Shown: positions 7,551 to 57,697 of the stretch, in pieces
Position numbering within the stretch: position 1 is the first letter of the stretch
Layout: every line of letters begins with the position of its first letter
NCBI RefSeq assembly: GCF_046105845.1
Contig: NZ_CP151004.1
Length of the DNA stretch: 64,000 nt
Source: Escherichia coli
GTDB taxonomy: Bacteria; Pseudomonadota; Gammaproteobacteria; Enterobacterales; Enterobacteriaceae
Direction: 5' to 3' (one strand)
Position numbers and translations under genes: made by a program
The notes under the pieces: model-generated
Seen by the model: the letters and a program-made list of their open reading frames with translations, nothing else
What the model was told of the DNA's origin: nothing
The model's database searches: none

Positions 7551-8288
7551 GCGCCATTCGCCTGGCATAATCTTTTGCCAGGTTTCATTGCCCGTCAGCG
7601 GCTGTGTCGCAATCACCGTGACCACATCATTCGGTGTGGTCTGCGAGCTGAAGTCGATTTCCACATCCTGATCCAGCAACGTTGCCACGCCAAACGGCGC
7701 GCGGCGGGTGATCCAGTGTAAATTAGTCGAGCAATACGCCATTACATAGCGCCCGTCAGAAAGCAGCATGTTGAAAACGCCCTTCTGCCGCAGTTCATCC
7801 GCCAGTGAGGCGATATATTTAAACACTGCCGCCATGTTGCCCGGTGTGCGCGGGTAACGCTGCGTTAATTTATGCAGGAGCCAGCAGAAGGCTTTTTCGC
7901 TGTCGGTTTCACCGACCGGGCGGAAGTTGCCGGTTTCCAGTGATTTATAGCCCGTCAGTTGCCCATTATGGGCATAAGTCCAGTTACGCCCCCATAACTC
8001 GCGGGTAAACGGGTGAGTATTTTCCAGCGCCACCTCGCCCCGATTCGCCTGGCGAATATGAGCCACCACCGAACAGGATTTTATCGGGTAGTCCTGGACA
8101 AGTTTGGCGATGGGAGAATTAAAGCTGGGTTGCGGATCTTTAAATGTGCGACAGCCTTTACCTTCGTAAAAGGTAATGCCCCAGCCATCTTTATGTGGCC
8201 CGGTTCCACCACCACGCTGTACAAGCCCGGTGAAACTAAAGCAGATATCGGTAGGGACGTTGGCGCTCATCCCGAGCAATTCGCACAT
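7521..8288 (-). CDS. yafJ: Class-II glutamine amidotransferase-like protein YafJ
   Basis: ORF 7521..8303; probable start at [11 protein letters not shown], typical of Ntn-type amidotransferases. Confidence 0.85.
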
Positions 8289-12182: not shown

Positions 12183-12335
12183 GTTATTAACCTCCTAAAG
12201 CCTGGCGATAACACGATAATTTGCAAATCAGATATTTCCAATATCAGCATTTGTTATCAATTTATTCTGCGCTAAGGCAACTGCCTGATAAGGTGTTAGA
12301 GTTATAAAACCCTTCGCATAAAGGAGTTGTACACC

Positions 12336-13106
12336 GTGCCTGGTTTGAAGATTACGCTTTTACAGCAACCACTGGTGTGGATGGATGGTCCTGCCAACCT
12401 GCGTCATTTTGATCGTCAACTGGAAGGCATTACCGGGCGCGATGTGATCGTTCTACCGGAGATGTTTACCAGCGGCTTTGCCATGGAAGCGGCAGCTGCG
12501 TCGCTAGCACAAGATGACGTAGTGAACTGGATGACAGCCAAAGCGCAGCAGTGCAATGCGCTGATTGCAGGCAGTGTTGCATTACAAACGGAGTCTGGTT
12601 CGGTTAACCGCTTTTTGCTGGTTGAGCCGGGCGGCACGGTACATTTTTATGATAAGCGTCATCTGTTCCGCATGGCAGATGAGCATCTGCATTATAAAGC
12701 GGGCAATGCGCGAGTGATTGTGGAATGGCGCGGCTGGCGTATTTTGCCGCTGGTGTGCTACGACTTACGTTTTCCGGTGTGGTCGCGCAATCTCAACGAT
12801 TACGACCTCGCCCTGTACGTCGCCAACTGGCCTGCTCCGCGCTCTCTGCACTGGCAGGCATTGCTGACGGCCCGCGCGATTGAGAATCAAGCGTATGTGG
12901 CGGGATGCAATCGCGTCGGCAGCGATGGCAACGGCTGCCATTATCGCGGTGACAGCCGGGTGATTAATCCACAGGGCGAGATTATCGCCACCGCCGACGC
13001 GCATCAGGCAACGCGCATTGATGCGGAGCTGTCGATGGTGGCGTTGCGGGAGTATAGAGAAAAGTTTCCGGCATGGCGGGATGCGGATGAGTTTAGGTTG
13101 TGGTGA
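12336..13106 (+). CDS. yafV: Nitrilase-superfamily omega-amidase YafV
   Basis: Likely GTG start at 12336 (aaggag Shine-Dalgarno at 12321-12326) giving (M)PGLKITLLQQ...; carbon-nitrogen hydrolase fold. Confidence 0.85.
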   Translation: MPGLKITLLQQPLVWMDGPANLRHFDRQLEGITGRDVIVLPEMFTSGFAMEAAAASLAQDDVVNWMTAKAQQCNALIAGSVALQTESGSVNRFLLVEPGGTVHFYDKRHLFRMADEHLHYKAGNARVIVEWRGWRILPLVCYDLRFPVWSRNLNDYDLALYVANWPAPRSLHWQALLTARAIENQAYVAGCNRVGSDGNGCHYRGDSRVINPQGEIIATADAHQATRIDAELSMVALREYREKFPAWRDADEFRLW

Positions 13107-13162
13107 GTGGGTGTTGTGTTTAGGGCCGGGGAGAGTCGGGGTATGACTACGAAAGCCCCTAA

Positions 13163-13702
13163 CTTAAACACGATATTACGCCAGAAGTCACCATTTCCAA
13201 AACACAACGCCGTTGTACCGTGGGATATCTGCCCAACAGCAGCGACACGCCGGTGATCAAAATCAGCGCCAAATGGCTGAGAGAAGCGGGATTTGAGATC
13301 GGCACGGGCGTTACCGTGAAGATCCCGGAAGGTTGCCTGATCCTGCTTGCGGATAACAACGAAGTACAGGAACTGAGGAAGGAACTTTATAAGGTTAAAC
13401 AGGCTGTCTTCAATATAGAACCGGAGCGATTACGCCAGTCAGGATCTGACTTTAGTTGCCTTCTCTTTATTCTCATCATGGCTATTTGTTCTGCGGGATC
13501 AAGCTTTCCCTTTGCTATTCTCGCCTTCATATATTCAATTTGTTTCTCCAGATATGAAATCCCTGCCAGTGCGATGTGCTTCGGTATGTTCCATTTTTCA
13601 CGATATTCGTCAGCGCGTATTCCATGCACAAACCAGATATGGCGCGGTAAAAAAATGAGCAACTTGCCACACTCCAGACAGGGTATTTTTTCCCGCTTAT
13701 GA
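13163..13702 (+). CDS. SymE-family (type I toxin-like) ORF, possibly degenerate
   Basis: Residues TVGYLPNSSDTPVIKISAKWLREAGFEIGTGVTVKIPEGCLILLA align with E. coli SymE; no ATG (track start at 13220 is GTG; in-frame stop at 13160); the 3' ~250 nt lacks a stop only because it runs antisense to the MucR-like gene. Confidence 0.35.
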   Translation, partial: LKHDITPEVTISKTQRRCTVGYLPNSSDTPVIKISAKWLREAGFEIGTGVTVKIPEGCLILLADNNEVQELRKELYKVKQAVFNIEPERLRQSGSDFSCLLFILIMAICSAGSSFPFAILAFIYSICFSRYEIPASAMCFGMFHFSRYSSARIPCTNQIWRGKKMSNLPHSRQGIFSRL

Positions 13703-13758
13703 TATGCCAGAACCTCTTCACGCGTTTCGAATGGCCTGTTCCTCTCTTTTTTGTACAC
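13387..13758 (-). CDS. Ros/MucR-family zinc-finger DNA-binding protein (short form lacking the usual N-terminal domain)
   Basis: 123 aa ORF with CLECGKLLIFLPRHIWFVHGIRADEYREKWNIP, close to the Ros/MucR signature. Confidence 0.6.
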   Translation of the reverse strand: MYKKERNRPFETREEVLAYHKREKIPCLECGKLLIFLPRHIWFVHGIRADEYREKWNIPKHIALAGISYLEKQIEYMKARIAKGKLDPAEQIAMMRIKRRQLKSDPDWRNRSGSILKTACLTL

Positions 13759-22497: not shown

Positions 22498-25400
22498 CCT
22501 TCATACTCCTGCCGGTCAGAAATACCTGTCCCGGCAGGCGGAAATTTTTCAGCTCCAGCAGCGCCATCGGCCCTTTGCCCTGTTCAACCCGCAGCAGGTA
22601 ATTCAGCGGCAGGCCGTCCTGCGCTTTCCACACCACTTTAAAGGTACTGCTGTCCACCGGTGTCACCTGCGCCTGTTCCAGCAGACGAATTAGGCTCCAG
22701 CTTCCCCGGTAATCCGCCAGTATACGTTCCATCGCCTGCGTGCTGGTCCAGCTCAGCGATGCGCCGGGTTGCCACTGTTCATCCGGCCAGTTAAAACGCT
22801 GCCAGCGTTCTTTCTGGTTGAAATACTCCAGTTCCTGCCCGTCAATCACCAGATGTGTTTTCATCACGTCTCGGGCCGGTTTTGCCCGCAGTTCAAAATG
22901 TATTCCGGCATCGCCGCTGGCAAAGGCGGTGTCAGCCACGTCACGCAGGCGGTTCAGGGCGCGAATAAAGTCCGGGTTGACCGTCAGCCCCTGCGTGTTC
23001 ATGGCGTCCGCCACCCAGTAGCGGCCTTCACGTTTCAGAACGCCGGAAAGGTTGGCGGCAATAAACTGGTTGATGCGCCCGTCATCGCGCAGATACTGCG
23101 CCAGCAGGGGGAGGGAAGCATCGTTCTGTGAGGCTTTGAACGGGTAGCGACCAGCGAAGTCCTGATTCCAGTGGCTGACAATCGCCCGCTGCCACTGGCG
23201 GTTCAGGCTGTCCGCCGCAGGCGTCAGCACCTGCCGCCACGACTGCTCCACCGGGCGGACGAACAGCGCCTGACCGAAGCCACTCCATTCCTCGCCCAGA
23301 CTGGCGGCGATTAACCGTCCGTAGTCGCGGGTGTCGGTGAGGTCAACGGTTTTGCCCTGCAAGACTGTCTGCGCCAGTTGTTGGGTCATCTCCTGTGGGT
23401 CGGGGGCGTTGGTCACCTGTTGCAGTTTGAGGCGCACGCGGGTGACGCGGGTCAGATACGTTTGCAGGCTGAGTTGCGTATCGCCACCACCGCCTCCGGC
23501 CTTATCGCCCAGCAAACGCAGCAGCGGCGCGAAGGTTTTATCCAGTGGCCCGACAGGCACGTCGTCTTCACGGGATTGCTGCGGCGTTTTCTCCTTGCCG
23601 TTAAACAGTTCCTGTGCCGATTTCGCCAGCGAGTCCGACAGGCCACGGTTTTCCCTGCCAGCCGCCGCCTGCCAGGCGAGGGTGTCCGTCAGCGCAATCA
23701 GCGGCGACTGACGGGCATCGGCCATCAGCGTCAGCTGGTCGAGAATGCCGGAGAGTGAGTCTTCCTTTTTCCAGCGAATGCTGTTGAGAAACGCCAGCCA
23801 GCTTCCGGCAAAGTCGGTAAAGTAGCGTGAGGTGAGACGGTTACGCAGCGTATCCGGCGAGATATCCGCAGAGGTATCCTGCTGGCGGTCGCTGAGTACC
23901 CAGTCGATTTCCTCGCGCCGCGCCGTCACCACCTGCTCGATGGCTTCCCTGACCTGTCCTTCCCACGCCTGACGGGTGAACATCCCCGGCACCGTCTGTT
24001 CCGTACTGAAAAGAGATTCGGTGAGCGTATCCCCGGTCATGTCCGCCAGCGTCATATCGGCGTAGTTGCGGGACACCTGTTGCAGTACGTTCTGGTAGAG
24101 GGTGTTTTCGGCATTGCGCACACCAATCTGGCGCAGCAGGATTTTACGCACCGCGCCGGTCAGTTCCGGTGGCGGCGAGGTTTTCCACTGCGGGTGTTCC
24201 GGCAGGTTCGCCATCCAGAAGGTCAGCAGTGACGGCAACACGCTCTGACGCACACCTTCCGGGATATTTTCATAGCGCAGGCCGTCCGCCATCAGCGTGG
24301 TACTGAAAAAGGCAGCGTCGGCCTTTTCCGGGCGGGAAGTCATCAGCAATGCCTTAAGCTGCTTATAGCGTTGTTCACCAGTGGCGGTACGCTGAGGACT
24401 GTTGGGCGGCAGCGCGACAAAGGCGTTCAGTTGCTGTTGCAGATGGTCAACGGCCACGTCGCGCACCAGCCGGTTTGCCGCCTGTGCATAGCCAGGAAAG
24501 GCGGCGGCGAGCAGTTGCTGGTTACGTTCAAGGCCAAAACGCTGATACCACGGCGCACCTTCGCGGATACGATATTGCAGGCGCTCCAGTTCGCCCTGCA
24601 GGGTATGCAGCGCCACCAGTTGTTCAGACAGCGGCAGCCGGGTATCAAGCGCTCGTGCAGTCTGGATGCTGGTTTCCTGAACAAGCGCGCGGTTGGCGAA
24701 GAAAGAGGTCGTCATTCCGGCCCCCCATATCGCCAGCATGCAGATGCCGCTTATCAGCGCGGCGCGTAGCCACGGAAAGCCCACTGTACGCCCCCGTGCG
24801 TTATCGCCGGTCACGCCCGCCCAGACCGGTGACGGCAGCCACGCATGAGGTGCGGCCTCCGGTACGGCGGTAAGCGGCGGGCTGAACATCAGACCGCGCA
24901 GGCGCAGGGAAGAGAATGCGCCGCCTGCCAGCAGCGGTTTCAGGACGGTCTGCCAGTGAGCGATACCCCGCTCTGCAAGGGTATGAGCCAGACGCAGCAG
25001 GAAATCATGGCGGTTATCGGTCAGCAGTTGCGACATGCCCTGTTCCGTCAGCGGCAGGGTTTGTGCTTCCAGCATTACAGCCAGTTGTTCCGGGGGACAG
25101 CGTTCCGGCAGCAGGCAGCCGACGCTTTGCAGAGGGCGTCCGGTCTGATAATCACCGTTGTCACAGACCTGCCACAAATAGAGTGGGGCCTGAAAACCGA
25201 GTCGCTTACTGCCGTTTATCAGTTCGCGCCAGCCTTTGTCGAGTTGCGCTGTCTGGCGGCTCTGTTCTTCTGTCAGCGCCCAGATGATGCCATCCAGCGG
25301 ACGGCTGCGACGCAGTTTTTTTAAGGCGGTCAGCAGTGTGACATCAGGCTCCGCTGATGGCCTGCCGCCATATATCAGCACCGTGTGGTCGCCCTCCAGC

Positions 25401-45045: not shown

Positions 45046-45657
45046 CAGGAGTGCGAGATAATCACGCGTGTGACTATCCCATAAGGATTATGACTATATA
45101 AAGATAAAAAACAAGAACAAATATAGAGACAGAAATATCATTTATAATTGCTGTGAATAATTATACGTCTATCTCGAAATTATATTATTTGAGAACATCA
45201 TCCCATTTTTAGGCGTTTTAGCTGTTAAGCAGACGGTTAAACCTATACATGTGTATACATGCATGAAAATACTGAAAAACAACAAGATCCACATCACAAA
45301 AATTTATTTTTCAGAATGACGGAATTCATGTTTTTTTCGCAAATTATTCACCATGCAAATATTTAATTTTTTTCATGCTTAATAAAATATGATGTTTACT
45401 CATATGCCAACTATGCTACCTGTTGACGCCACACACCAATACACAAAACAAATGCAACAATCACAAACCATAAAAATAAAATATGATTTAGCTATAGTTA
45501 TCAACAAAATAACATCACCACCATTTATAATTTTACTATTGATAAAAAATAGAAACTACGATAAATAATAAAGCATTACTTACCAATCATTCTTTTAAAT
45601 GATTCTGGAATGCAGTCTCCACTGCATAATTGGGCTGTGTTTTTTAAGGAGCAAGTA
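45046..45657. promoter_or_regulatory. About 600 bp AT-rich divergent intergenic region: T6SS (tssB) promoter region and promoter of the 313-aa gene
   Basis: Strongly AT-rich; contains a GATC site (around 45287-45290) and AT-rich Fur-box-like stretches; in the EAEC sci-1 cluster Fur/Dam control is established. Confidence 0.4.
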
Positions 45658-46599
45658 ATGCATACCATTCCTTATTATAGCAATAACACCTCTATGCCTG
45701 TCTGGGTTACTGTTAGCGAAGCAACTGATATTATCAATAAGTATACTAACAGCCATATTAAAGATTGTGACTTATGGCGTTATGCACTTTATGGTCACTT
45801 ACCTCTTTCAATTTATTTCCAGTCACAAATAAAGCTTAGAAAAATTTGCCTGAGCGGCGATGAAATCATGCTGGATAACATCGAAGAAAGCATTATTGAG
45901 AAGATAGCTCAGTTAAGTGATACGTGCATATACAATGGGAAAAATAAAATAATAAAGACAGAAGGTGACTATATTTCCCCAGAGCATCATATTATTGATA
46001 CACCATTAATTGGTCATGAATATATTGTATTACAAAGATTACTTGCTCACTCATTAAAAATACCAAAACCTATTACAGGACAGTATAATTCTCATTATGG
46101 TGTTGTCGTCCGTGAAAATGGAATAATTTATCAGGTCTTCGAATCAACTACACTGGAAAACAGAATAACCCAGCGCCTTCGCCATCTTTCAATCCCCGTT
46201 GCAACATACTTTTACGAATCAACAAAATCCCAGGATCTCAAACAGGCAGGAACCCGGTATTTCCCGGTTTATCATTTTCCTGACGATGCCTGGTTCGTTA
46301 TCAAACGCACTGCTCTTGAGCAATTCATAAATACTTTTCTCCCTCCCACTCATAAAAATACCCCTAAAAATGGAACCCGCATTTCTACACCGCTATCACG
46401 ATTTCTCTGGCTAGCGTGTAAGCACAATCATGATATTAGCGCACTGATGGGGCACCCCTACAAACTCCTCTCCGTGTTCGAAGAATGGGCCCGCTCCGAC
46501 GGTATCACTGAACGACTAAATGGAGATACGCTGAAAACCGCACTGGAACGCGGTTCTCCGGTTTTAGCCTACCGTAACTCCGAATTAATGAAATCCTAA
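45658..46599 (+). CDS. Hypothetical protein (island cargo, no family recognised)
   Basis: Likely start MHTIPYYSNN (ggagcaagta Shine-Dalgarno-like sequence upstream); about 313 aa; AT-rich 5' two-thirds. Confidence 0.5.
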   Translation: MHTIPYYSNNTSMPVWVTVSEATDIINKYTNSHIKDCDLWRYALYGHLPLSIYFQSQIKLRKICLSGDEIMLDNIEESIIEKIAQLSDTCIYNGKNKIIKTEGDYISPEHHIIDTPLIGHEYIVLQRLLAHSLKIPKPITGQYNSHYGVVVRENGIIYQVFESTTLENRITQRLRHLSIPVATYFYESTKSQDLKQAGTRYFPVYHFPDDAWFVIKRTALEQFINTFLPPTHKNTPKNGTRISTPLSRFLWLACKHNHDISALMGHPYKLLSVFEEWARSDGITERLNGDTLKTALERGSPVLAYRNSELMKS

Positions 46600-46699: not shown

Positions 46700-46885
46700 A
46701 TGACGTCACAACGATTTCTGCGGCTGGCACAGGTTATGGATAAAACCGGACTGAAACGCTCACAGGTCTATGCTTATATGAAAACAGGGGATTTCCCAAA
46801 ATCCGTCAAAATTGGCCCGTCCAGCGTAGCATGGCTGGAATCGGAAATTGACGAATGGATCAATACAAAAATAAATAACCGCTAA
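46700..46885 (+). CDS. alpA: AlpA-family phage/island transcriptional regulator (excisionase-like)
   Basis: 61 aa MTSQRFLRLAQVMDKTGLKRSQVYAYMKTGDFPKSVKIGPSSVAWLESEIDEWI, AlpA-like helix-turn-helix. Confidence 0.8.
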   Translation: MTSQRFLRLAQVMDKTGLKRSQVYAYMKTGDFPKSVKIGPSSVAWLESEIDEWINTKINNR

Positions 46886-46924
46886 TGTAGTATTCTCATT
46901 ATTAGTTTGTTTGAGGTCATTAAT

Positions 46925-47719
46925 ATGAACGATGATCACGGTATTCTTATGCCTGTCGCACTAAATCAGCTACGGGCATTTGATTTAAATCCACGCCTTA
47001 CCAAAAATCCAGAATATGATGAAATTAAAGAATCGATTCGCAACCGCGGGCTGGATTATCCGCCACAAATAACACAACGTCCGGGAGAATCTTTTTATAT
47101 TATTGCCAATGGAGGTAATACCCGGCTGGCAATACTCAACGAGTTATGGCTGGAAACTCACGATAAAAAATACTGGAATATTGTCTGTCATTTCTGGAAG
47201 TGGCATACAGACTGGAGCATTGAAGAAGGTAATTTACACTGCCTGCTTGGTCATCTCGTAGAAAATGATAAACGCGGTTCACTGACATTTATTGAACGGG
47301 CATTAGGGGTTCAAAGTGCAATAAACCTGTATCAAAGTATCCGGGGAAGCTCACAAAGAGATCTGGTACAAATGCTCTGTCAGGCGGGATATCCAGTATC
47401 CACCACGAAACTAAGTATTATGTCCGCGACTATCACATTTCTTTTACCCTATATTCCGGAAGCACTTTACGGTGGTCTGTCGAGACGTATTATCGATAAA
47501 TTGCTGGCACTTCGTTCCAATACGCTAAAATTCTGGGACAACTTCTGCCAGACGTTGCCTCCCGAAAAGGAACAGCAACTCCCTCTATTTGACGATATTT
47601 TTGCTATGGCCCTGACTCCCTTTAATGAACCGATGACAGGTTTTTCACTGGAGCATATTCAGGATGAGCTGACAGGGATTATCAGCAAGACACTTAATGT
47701 GGACTCTGCCCAGCGATAA
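46925..47719 (+). CDS. ParB/Srx-like N-terminal-domain protein (island-associated)
   Basis: Start MNDDHGIL after a gaggt Shine-Dalgarno; the motif YIIANGGNTRLAIL resembles the ParB N-terminal box; assignment tentative. Confidence 0.45.
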   Translation: MNDDHGILMPVALNQLRAFDLNPRLTKNPEYDEIKESIRNRGLDYPPQITQRPGESFYIIANGGNTRLAILNELWLETHDKKYWNIVCHFWKWHTDWSIEEGNLHCLLGHLVENDKRGSLTFIERALGVQSAINLYQSIRGSSQRDLVQMLCQAGYPVSTTKLSIMSATITFLLPYIPEALYGGLSRRIIDKLLALRSNTLKFWDNFCQTLPPEKEQQLPLFDDIFAMALTPFNEPMTGFSLEHIQDELTGIISKTLNVDSAQR

Positions 47720-47916
47720 CGGGATGGCCAGATTTGCGCCGGTGATATATTCAATGCCTCCGCAATCAACCGCTCACCTTTCGGCCAGTGGCTCCTGAGT
47801 GCATTTGCCAGCGTACCGGAGGCCAGCCCGGCTTTGCGGGAAACCGCTGCCAGCGACGTTCCCTGTTTTTTCAGTGCCGCGATAATATCTGCGGGGTGCC
47901 AGTCCTGCTGCATCAT
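47659..47916 (-). CDS. Ner/Nlp-family small DNA-binding protein
   Basis: From MMQQDWHPADIIAALKKQGTSLAAVSRKAGLASGTLANAL...; Ner-like helix-turn-helix; start overlaps the integrase stop. Confidence 0.55.
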   Translation of the reverse strand: MMQQDWHPADIIAALKKQGTSLAAVSRKAGLASGTLANALRSHWPKGERLIAEALNISPAQIWPSRYRWAESTLSVLLIIPVSSS

Positions 47917-49137
47917 ACTGCCCTCCCACAAACCAGCCGTTCGGACGGGATACCACATACACGCTGGCTCCACCACGCCATCACGTCGGTTCTCTGCTCA
48001 AGATAGGTCGAGCGGTTATAAGCGGCGCGCGTCTGATTAGTATCCGCATGAGCCAGTACAGCTTCTATCACATCAGGGGAAAATCCGGCCTCATTCAGCG
48101 TGGTGCTACCCAGCGCCCGGAAACCATGTGACACCAGCTCCCCGCAATACCCCATACGCCGTAGTGCCTTATTGACCGTTTCGCTATTCATTGGTTGCGA
48201 GGGCTTAACCCGACCCGGAAACAGGAACGGCGAGTGTCCACTTATCGGTTTAAGTTGCTCCAGTATCCACAGCATTTCATCAGTCAGGGGCACCAGATGC
48301 TCACGGCGTTTTTTCATACGCTCAGCCGGAATAGTCCATAGCTTTTTCTCCGTATCAATCTCACGCCACATGGTGCCTGACGCTTCTCCGGGGCGCACCA
48401 GCGTCAGCAACTGCCACTTAATCAGATAACGAGTCATCAGCGATAGATTGGTGGTTTCAATCCGCTGTACCAGCTCCGGCAGGCGTTCCGGGCGGATAGA
48501 CGCCATATGCTGTTTTTTCGGCTTCTCAAAGACCTTACCGATGGTCGAGGCTGGATTCGCATCAAGCAGGCCGGAATTGACAGCAAATACCATCACTTCG
48601 TTGATACGCTGGGTTAGACGACGCAGGGTTTCCAGCGCACCTCGTGCCCGGACCGGCTCAAGGGCGGCAATCAGAGTATGTGCTTTCAATTCAGCTACCG
48701 GCATCTGTCCGATTGACGGAAGAACATCCCGTTCCATCGAACGCCAGATATCATCTGCATGCACTTCTGAAATGCCACTGGTCTTTTTAATAGCAAACCA
48801 TCTTGTCGCCACATTGATAAACAGGCTGTCGATTGCTTTCTTTTCCTGTTCTGCGGCTTCCTGCTCCAGCTTTTTCGGATCTACACCCTGAGCCAGCAGA
48901 CCAAGATATTCATCATGTACTGCGGGCAGCAGCAAGAGTTACAGCAGGATAATAACCCAGCGTGATATTGGTACGGGCAGTGGAGTTTGGACGCTGGTAA
49001 CGAAAACGCCAGATTTTCTTCCCGGAAGTACGAACAGAAAGCGTCAGACCATGCCCGTCAGGCAGGTCGTAATCTTTATCGGCGGGTTTTGCTTTTTGTA
49101 CTGCGGCAGCAGTCAGCAGGCGGCGGGTAATGGTCAT
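47913..49137 (-). pseudogene. int: P4-type tyrosine integrase, interrupted by a frameshift
   Basis: N-terminal 74-aa ORF (48913..49137, arm-binding-like domain) and C-terminal 340-aa ORF (47913..48935, catalytic domain) lie in different frames with a junction near 48915-48935. Confidence 0.8.
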
Positions 49138-49320
49138 GATTTACTCCTCAGTTATCGTCAATGTTAAGCGACGAGGCTGACGTAATATCCTGTTCCACCA
49201 CCACTTTTTCAGCCATAAACTCAGAAATGGCCTACGAAATTTGTCCTCTGGTCGCATAGGCCATTTCATGGGCCATTTTGCACCGGATACAGGAGTATCC
49301 AGCAGGACAAATTCAGACGA

Positions 49321-49353
49321 AAAAAAACCGTATCACCTTGATAGCGATACGGT
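49321..49353 (-). terminator. Rho-independent terminator downstream of aspV
   Basis: On the minus strand accgtatc...gatacggt hairpin followed by ttttttt. Confidence 0.55.
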
Positions 49354-49398
49354 TTTCTTACTTCACAGGATGTATAAAAACACCCTGAAATTTGTAAG

Positions 49399-49475
49399 TG
49401 GCGGAACGGACGGGACTCGAACCCGCGACCCCCTGCGTGACAGGCAGGTATTCTAACCGACTGAACTACCGCTCC
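49399..49475 (-). tRNA. aspV: tRNA-Asp (GUC)
   Basis: Reverse complement reads GGAGCGGTAGTTCAGTCGGTTAGAATACCTGCCTGTCACGCAGGGGGTCGCGGGTTCGAGTCCCGTCCGTTCCGCCA. Confidence 0.97.
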
Positions 49476-57620: not shown

Positions 57621-57697
57621 TGGCGGAACGGACGGGACTCGAACCCGCGACCCCCTGCGTGACAGGCAGGTATTCTAACCGACTGAACTACCGCTCC
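57621..57697 (-). tRNA. aspU: tRNA-Asp (GUC), distal gene of rrnH
   Basis: Identical 77-nt sequence to aspV. Confidence 0.97.

Follow-up and report, generated by a model that had tools for sequence, protein, structure and literature searches.

A two-base-pair deletion splits the integrase gene of a tRNA-Asp-linked island with a type VI secretion cluster in Escherichia coli

Gene Organization of the aspV-Linked Island

The window, by which is meant the whole 64,000-nucleotide stretch of the E. coli contig NZ_CP151004.1 that was analysed, runs from fadE, ivy, and yafV (∼9.1–13.1 kb) through a 36-kb island to the tRNA-Asp gene aspV, and from there through dnaQ and rnhA along the core chromosome to the rrnH operon, at the end of which lies a second, identical tRNA-Asp gene, aspU (57621–57697). 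The core flank shares at least 99% identity with 248 complete E. coli genomes and 95–99% with the rest. The match to island-free E. coli ends at 49395–49399, and on the far side of the island core synteny with strain SC418 resumes at 13131. An integrase gene adjoins aspV, in keeping with an earlier reading made from the sequence alone (hereafter the sequence-only reading), and the features of the island are as follows, listed from the tRNA gene toward yafV.

49399–49475, minus strand: tRNA-Asp gene aspV (ARAGORN).
49399–49420, minus strand: attachment core on the attL side, the 3′-terminal 22 nt of aspV (from the repeat in E. fergusonii).
47913–49137, minus strand: whole integrase pseudogene, a P4/CP4-57-type tyrosine recombinase of 408 aa when intact.
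47659–47916, minus strand: HTH_35/SfsB(Ner)-like DNA-binding gene, 3′-truncated (85 aa, vs. 116 aa in relatives).
47699–47705: junction of a 6.1-kb loss relative to E. fergusonii (BLAST of locus L021 against the window).
46907–47719, plus strand: ParB-family protein of the PFGI-1 class of ICEs (NCBIfam TIGR03764, 271.6 bits vs. a cutoff of 143.75).
46700–46885, plus strand: AlpA-family small DNA-binding protein, a candidate excisionase or regulator, with an intact ORF (ORF list).
45610–46599, plus strand: ORF of 308–329 aa between AlpA and tssB, conserved in position in E. fergusonii.
13823–45045, minus strand: type VI secretion (T6SS) cluster, from tssB to a VasL-domain gene (annotation of matching E. 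coli genomes and Pfam).
13387–13758, minus strand: MucR/Ros-family regulator, a truncated copy of 123 aa, the full gene encoding 183 aa (homology to the latter ends at 13407).
13227–13407: fragment resembling a symE-family toxin, linking the island end to yafV at 12327–13106 (homology).

The stop codon of the integrase gene and the start codon of the HTH_35 gene overlap as ATGA (47913–47916), which suggests translational coupling, and the upstream frameshift described below may lower expression of the HTH gene. Pfam assigns Phage_AlpA to the identical AlpA gene in loci L004 and L007, and the ORF between AlpA and tssB (45610–46599) gave no family match. Just 3′ of aspV, a hairpin followed by a T-run at 49320–49360 looks like a tRNA terminator; it is island sequence, common to the E. 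fergusonii island located at aspU, and an A/T homopolymer next to it (49327) differs in length among strains.

Within the T6SS cluster, two ORFs of VgrG length (29259–31760, 833 aa, and 33296–35785, 829 aa) and the genes downstream of them look tandemly duplicated with a period of ∼4034 bp, and short matches around them repeat at the same ∼4034-bp spacing. The portion of the cluster at 24400–45042 is ∼95% identical to clusters beside the metV tRNA-Met genes in MP1 (L003) and other strains, and this degree of identity at metV and aspV indicates that essentially one T6SS occupies two tRNA hotspots in the species.

The Lesion in the Integrase Gene

In the ORF list the integrase is split over two minus-strand reading frames that differ in phase and overlap at 48913–48935.

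48913–49137, minus strand: N-terminal fragment of 74 aa, consisting of 72 native residues followed by Ser, Thr, and a stop (its end reads TLAAARST).
47913–48935, minus strand: C-terminal fragment of 340 aa, covering the core-binding and catalytic domains (Pfam) and read in the +1 frame.
48921–48923, minus strand: site of a 2-bp deletion, one CA of GCACAG being lost to leave GCAG (alignment to SC418).

Strain SC418, the one genome among 5426 complete E. coli genomes with this integrase gene, carries it at the same aspV site with 99.0% identity and as a single 1227-bp ORF of 408 aa. Aligned to this intact gene, the window shows just one gap, 2 bp long (SC418, CCCGCACAGTA; window, CCCGCAGTA), which the alignment shows as GCCCGCACAGTACAT in SC418 and GCCCGCAGTACAT in the window; the exact placement of the lost CA is ambiguous within the GCACAG repeat, a site that is not a homopolymer. 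The reading frame is lost after codon 72 (Arg), and what follows, codons 73 and 74 (Ser, Thr) with the TGA stop, is read out of frame. Alignment to intact integrases had been proposed as a check on the sequence-only reading, and it returned one ORF in the intact allele and one 2-bp gap in the window. Together with the ORFs and the Pfam assignments, it agrees with that reading in parting the arm-binding from the catalytic region by a frameshift, and the lesion falls inside the junction the reading had placed at 48915–48935; the loss of a single base that it had supposed is corrected to 2 bp. Replication slippage at CACA would be the simplest origin of such a deletion.

Integrase Family and Predicted Product

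Pfam identifies Arm-DNA-bind_3 (PF13356) on the 74-aa fragment (E = 5e-17, profile positions 1–61 of 83), and, on the 340-aa fragment, the central SAM-like core-binding domain Phage_int_M (PF22022) and the catalytic domain Phage_integrase (PF00589; E = 8e-26 and 2e-26, respectively). The intact allele scores 495.6 bits against NCBIfam NF007246 (cutoff 434), and P4 Int aligns to the intact protein with 38% identity over ∼400 residues (8–391; E = 7e-90), bringing the catalytic R, K, HxxR, H, and Y into register within VRPGE, KKRREHLVPL, HGFRAL, LAHAD, and RAAY. Among its best matches in phages is a gene annotated as CP4-57 integrase, at 45% identity. Domains, NF007246, and the P4 Int alignment are all in accord with the earlier assignment of the integrase to the P4 type, and for the predicted protein the label is justified, while the one continuous ORF of a P4-type integrase is broken in the window by the 2-bp deletion.

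Solved CP4-like arm-binding domains (3ju0 and 3jtz) also align, 3ju0 corresponding to residues 8–94 of the intact protein. Since the solved arm domains span residues 8–94, the break at residue 72 would clip the C-terminal helix of the arm domain, and translation would end after 74 residues, yielding only this clipped arm-binding domain. The TTG start listed for the C-terminal fragment has no Shine-Dalgarno sequence, two ATGs at the stop codon belong to the third frame, where the peptide would be 11 aa long, and the first in-frame ATG corresponds to residue 136 of the intact protein, inside the core-binding domain. Because the +1 frame, which encodes the core-binding and catalytic domains, has no usable start, the recombinase is predicted to be absent, and we infer that no functional recombinase would be produced from this allele. 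For annotation, the two ORFs are best called as one integrase pseudogene.

Both frames are otherwise undamaged and every catalytic residue is kept, a state of preservation that would also fit a bypass of the split, through +1 ribosomal frameshifting in the 8-codon overlap or through cooperation of the two fragments as a split integrase. Such a bypass is extremely improbable, however. In three species the intact relatives each consist of one ORF, a frameshift signal is accordingly not conserved, and nothing argues for programmed frameshifting; the overlap (48916–48938) contains no known +1 slippery motif and no upstream Shine-Dalgarno sequence; reinitiation is opposed by the third-frame position of the ATGs at the stop codon and by the distance to the first in-frame ATG; the arm-domain helix is interrupted by the break; and, with attR gone, there is no partner with which to recombine. 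Programmed frameshifting and reinitiation were accordingly both considered and rejected on sequence grounds.

Recurrence of the Deletion in Independent Assemblies

An exact-sequence look-up found the 74-aa product in NCBI (WP_407228126.1), ENA, UniRef, and Logan, on 28 contigs, and the exact 340-aa product on nine contigs. Nine loci from different samples were fetched, comprising two NCBI assemblies, two ENA metagenome assemblies, and five Logan assemblies of independent runs; a pattern search recovered the identical deletion junction in all nine, as in the window, and the aspV context is alike in each. These results bear on the alternative of a sequencing or assembly error, raised in the sequence-only reading, under which the true genome would hold an intact integrase. 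The existence of closely related strains whose intact allele differs by the CA alone is compatible with an error, but the occurrence of the 74-aa product on 28 contigs opposes it, and, because the same 2-bp deletion recurs at a non-homopolymer site in nine samples sequenced independently of one another, among them Illumina-based Logan assemblies, metagenomes, and NCBI genomes, an error is effectively excluded.

Haplotypes Carrying the Deletion

At least three integrase haplotypes carry the identical deletion, which is accompanied by two types of dnaQ flank, and one of these haplotypes, haplotype A (linked SNPs at 48703, 48615, and 48444), exists in both states, deleted and undeleted. The indel and the SNP at 48703, 218 bp apart, occur in all four gametic combinations, and this violation of the four-gamete rule requires recombination inside the gene or else recurrent or reverting slippage. 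For the haplotypes compared, a single simple origin with neither recombination nor recurrence does not account for the distribution of the deletion. Recombination is favored because the flanks are visibly mosaic.

The presence of the deletion on three haplotypes and two dnaQ-flank types, the two states of haplotype A, and the four gametes within 218 bp would be expected if CACA were a recurrent and possibly reversible slippage hotspot, at which the deletion arose several times or reverted. Frequent slippage needs tracts far longer than two dinucleotide units, which counts against a hotspot at CACA. Other truncated products of the gene, of 110, 138, 181, 195, and 205 aa, are found in E. coli and E. 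fergusonii relatives, along with one internally deleted product of 350 aa; the gene's other inactivating lesions sit elsewhere and no preferred site is evident. As the mosaic flanks make recombination sufficient, a hotspot is considered very unlikely. More doubtful still is the proposal that GCACAG slips reversibly and so toggles the island integrase off and on among E. coli lineages, which, if true, would explain both the deletion on three haplotypes and the one haplotype in two states. Position 49389, which is T in carriers only and C in every intact allele and three carriers, was considered as a clean marker of recombination and set aside, since its pattern fits recombination and recurrence alike.

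Intact Alleles and the Age of the Frameshift

The closest intact allele, P0018 (408 aa; CM129746.1, L027), is found in CM129746.1 and several read-set assemblies. When the CA is added to the window gene, none of the 1227 nt differs from P0018, which means that no change has accumulated in the gene since the frameshift. CM129746.1 matches the window with 99.66% identity over 18.8 kb, and its intact integrase is followed by the 85-aa HTH gene, ParB, AlpA, and tssB in the same order as in the window. Because intact-integrase strains share this reduced architecture, the internal loss that removed the relaxase predates the frameshift. A dN/dS of 0.04 against the Salmonella allele indicates that the integrase gene was long under purifying selection. 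The sequence-only reading had called the insertion ancient, a description that fails for the frameshift, given the identity with P0018 bar the CA, and for the integrase module, which is 99.3% identical to that of E. fergusonii.

Loss of attR and Predicted Mobility

Searches of the window for a second copy of the tRNA-Asp 3′ end, by blastn-short (word size 7) and by an exhaustive 22-mer scan that allowed up to 7 mismatches and used shuffled sequence as control, found none beyond chance save aspU. The best island match to the 22-nt core has 7 of 22 positions mismatched, equal to shuffled sequence. The attR repeat is thus missing from the window, as had been claimed, and the direct repeats at both ends that mark an excisable tRNA-integrated island, with the repeat present in E. 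fergusonii (L022, L023), are not found here.

The absence of attR follows from truncation of the distal end inside the MucR gene at 13407. The truncated MucR junction was found in several samples, including the metagenome ERZ27281048, which also carries the frameshift; in a protein look-up, CM129746.1 was absent among the matches listed for the VasL and truncated MucR proteins. In some strains with an identical VasL (L035, L037, L039), the MucR gene is complete (183 aa) and beyond it lies another T6SS cluster (ImpA_N, TssG) of opposite orientation, and the window lineage appears to have deleted this second cluster along with the island end.

The 6.1-kb internal loss and the loss of attR are each predicted to disable mobility on their own. 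Immobility is over-determined, because the relaxase and attR losses stand beside the frameshift, and the earlier conclusion that the island cannot excise is reasonable as regards immobility itself; the frameshift is not its cause, the attR and relaxase losses being sufficient. The island, including its T6SS cluster, would now be a fixed chromosomal segment, and in this lineage the aspV T6SS island should be treated as such and not as a mobile element.

Element of Origin

The Salmonella enterica allele of the integrase, at 89% nucleotide identity, also lies at aspV, where the genes after it encode a MobH/TraI_2 relaxase, a ParA-like ATPase, RadC, and TraG_N (L024), a gene order that indicates a conjugative-element layout. 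This Salmonella element is on contig DABLYJ010000010.1 of assembly GCA_013643675.1. E. fergusonii carries the same integrase at 99.3–99.4% nucleotide identity, located after aspU, and its gene order (L021) continues with the 116-aa HTH_35 gene, a MobH relaxase matching NF041494 and TIGR03760, ParA, an IS, TraR, DUF2857, ParB, AlpA, the 308-aa ORF, and tssB. At the distal end of this island (L022, L023) lie the MucR gene, a 22-nt direct repeat of the tRNA-Asp 3′ end, and dkgB; the att core is defined as 22 nt because this repeat flanks the E. fergusonii island.

Relative to E. fergusonii, the window is 99.3% identical from 49475 to 47699, lacks 6.1 kb that contain the MobH relaxase, ParA, TraR, DUF2857, and part of ParB, and is 93% identical from 47702 to 44055, so that the ParB-AlpA-tssB segment stands at 93% vs. 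99.3% for the integrase-HTH module. This step in identity across 47699–47705 indicates that the integrase end was exchanged recently, and it suggests that the junction may reflect a recent interspecies exchange of the integrase-HTH module, or a joint between two related elements, and not a simple deletion.

The backbone left in the window consists of the integrase, the 85-aa HTH_35 gene, ParB, AlpA, and the 308–329-aa ORF. The ParB protein is specific to the PFGI-1 (MobH) class of ICEs (TIGR03764); the MobH/TIGR03760 relaxase is absent from the window and present in L021 and L024, and no mating-pair formation genes (TraG_N etc.) occur between aspV and yafV, such genes being found only in the Salmonella locus L024. 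Taken jointly, the preferred explanation is that the frameshift in this P4-family integrase is a genuine, heritable 2-bp deletion, that the integrase is that of a PFGI-1/MobH-class ICE inserted in the tRNA-Asp 3′ end, and that the island is probably fixed in the chromosome today; as a whole it is assigned a probability of about 90%. The ICE remnant is fused to the T6SS island, and the T6SS may have been its cargo or a neighbor.

Stepwise Decay of the Island

A stepwise decay can be proposed in which the conjugation genes would have been lost first, the relaxase segment second, and the distal end with attR third, followed by the frameshift as the most recent step, in an integrase that would already have had no partner site. 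The order of the first three steps among themselves is one that we infer. Arranged as a series, a Salmonella ICE, an E. fergusonii remnant with attR, intact-integrase E. coli that lack the relaxase, frameshifted strains, and IS-truncated strains present the integrase as the final gene lost during the in-place decay of an ICE.

At the end of this series, ISEc31 interrupts the C-terminal fragment in two carriers of the deletion (L005, L011), reducing it to 244 aa with the neighboring genes gone, and strain CFIAFB20140388 has ISEc31 in place of the integrase. SC418 and its relatives lack the T6SS island, and in them ISEc31 separates the HTH gene from yafV. Copies of this IS3-family element were located at 7824–9037 in L001, 21756–22969 in L002, 6907–8120 in L005, and 1194–2371 in L011; each insertion sits at a different island position and borders a different deletion, of the integrase, the T6SS, or the ICE backbone. 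ISEc31 appears to be the main agent eroding the island.

Comparison With Known Systems

A pseudogene of this kind, within a tRNA-linked island undergoing decay, is routine, and similar cases occur across many enterobacterial genomes. A literature search for a named ICE at aspV gave general island reviews alone. The gene is most like the P4 and CP4-57/IntA-type island integrases, with which it shares Arm-DNA-bind_3, Phage_int_M, and the catalytic domain in the same order, insertion at the 3′ end of a tRNA gene, and an integrase gene that adjoins the tRNA gene and is co-oriented with it. It differs from them in its target, tRNA-Asp (aspV or aspU) with a 22-nt core, and from phage P4 in belonging to a conjugative element rather than a satellite phage and in being a pseudogene in the window.

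The aspV gene is a recognized insertion hotspot bearing T6SS islands from which direct repeats are often absent (PMC2941450, PMC2907695, PMC7545054). PAI I of E. coli LF82 and SPI-6 of Salmonella resemble the present island in having a ∼35-kb T6SS cluster adjoining aspV, whereas the integrase module found here is present in only one of the 5426 complete E. coli genomes. In contrast to other aspV-linked T6SS islands, the closest relatives of this T6SS are at the metV locus in many strains.

With ICEs of the PFGI-1, ICEclc, and PAPI-1 type, the window shares the TIGR03764 ParB and the AlpA gene, and the MobH/TIGR03760 relaxase, ParA, DUF2857, and TraG_N persist in relatives that carry the same integrase. 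The window differs from these elements in having lost the relaxase, ParA, the mating-pair genes, and attR, and in retaining a backbone of only ∼4.3 kb, joined to a T6SS cluster.
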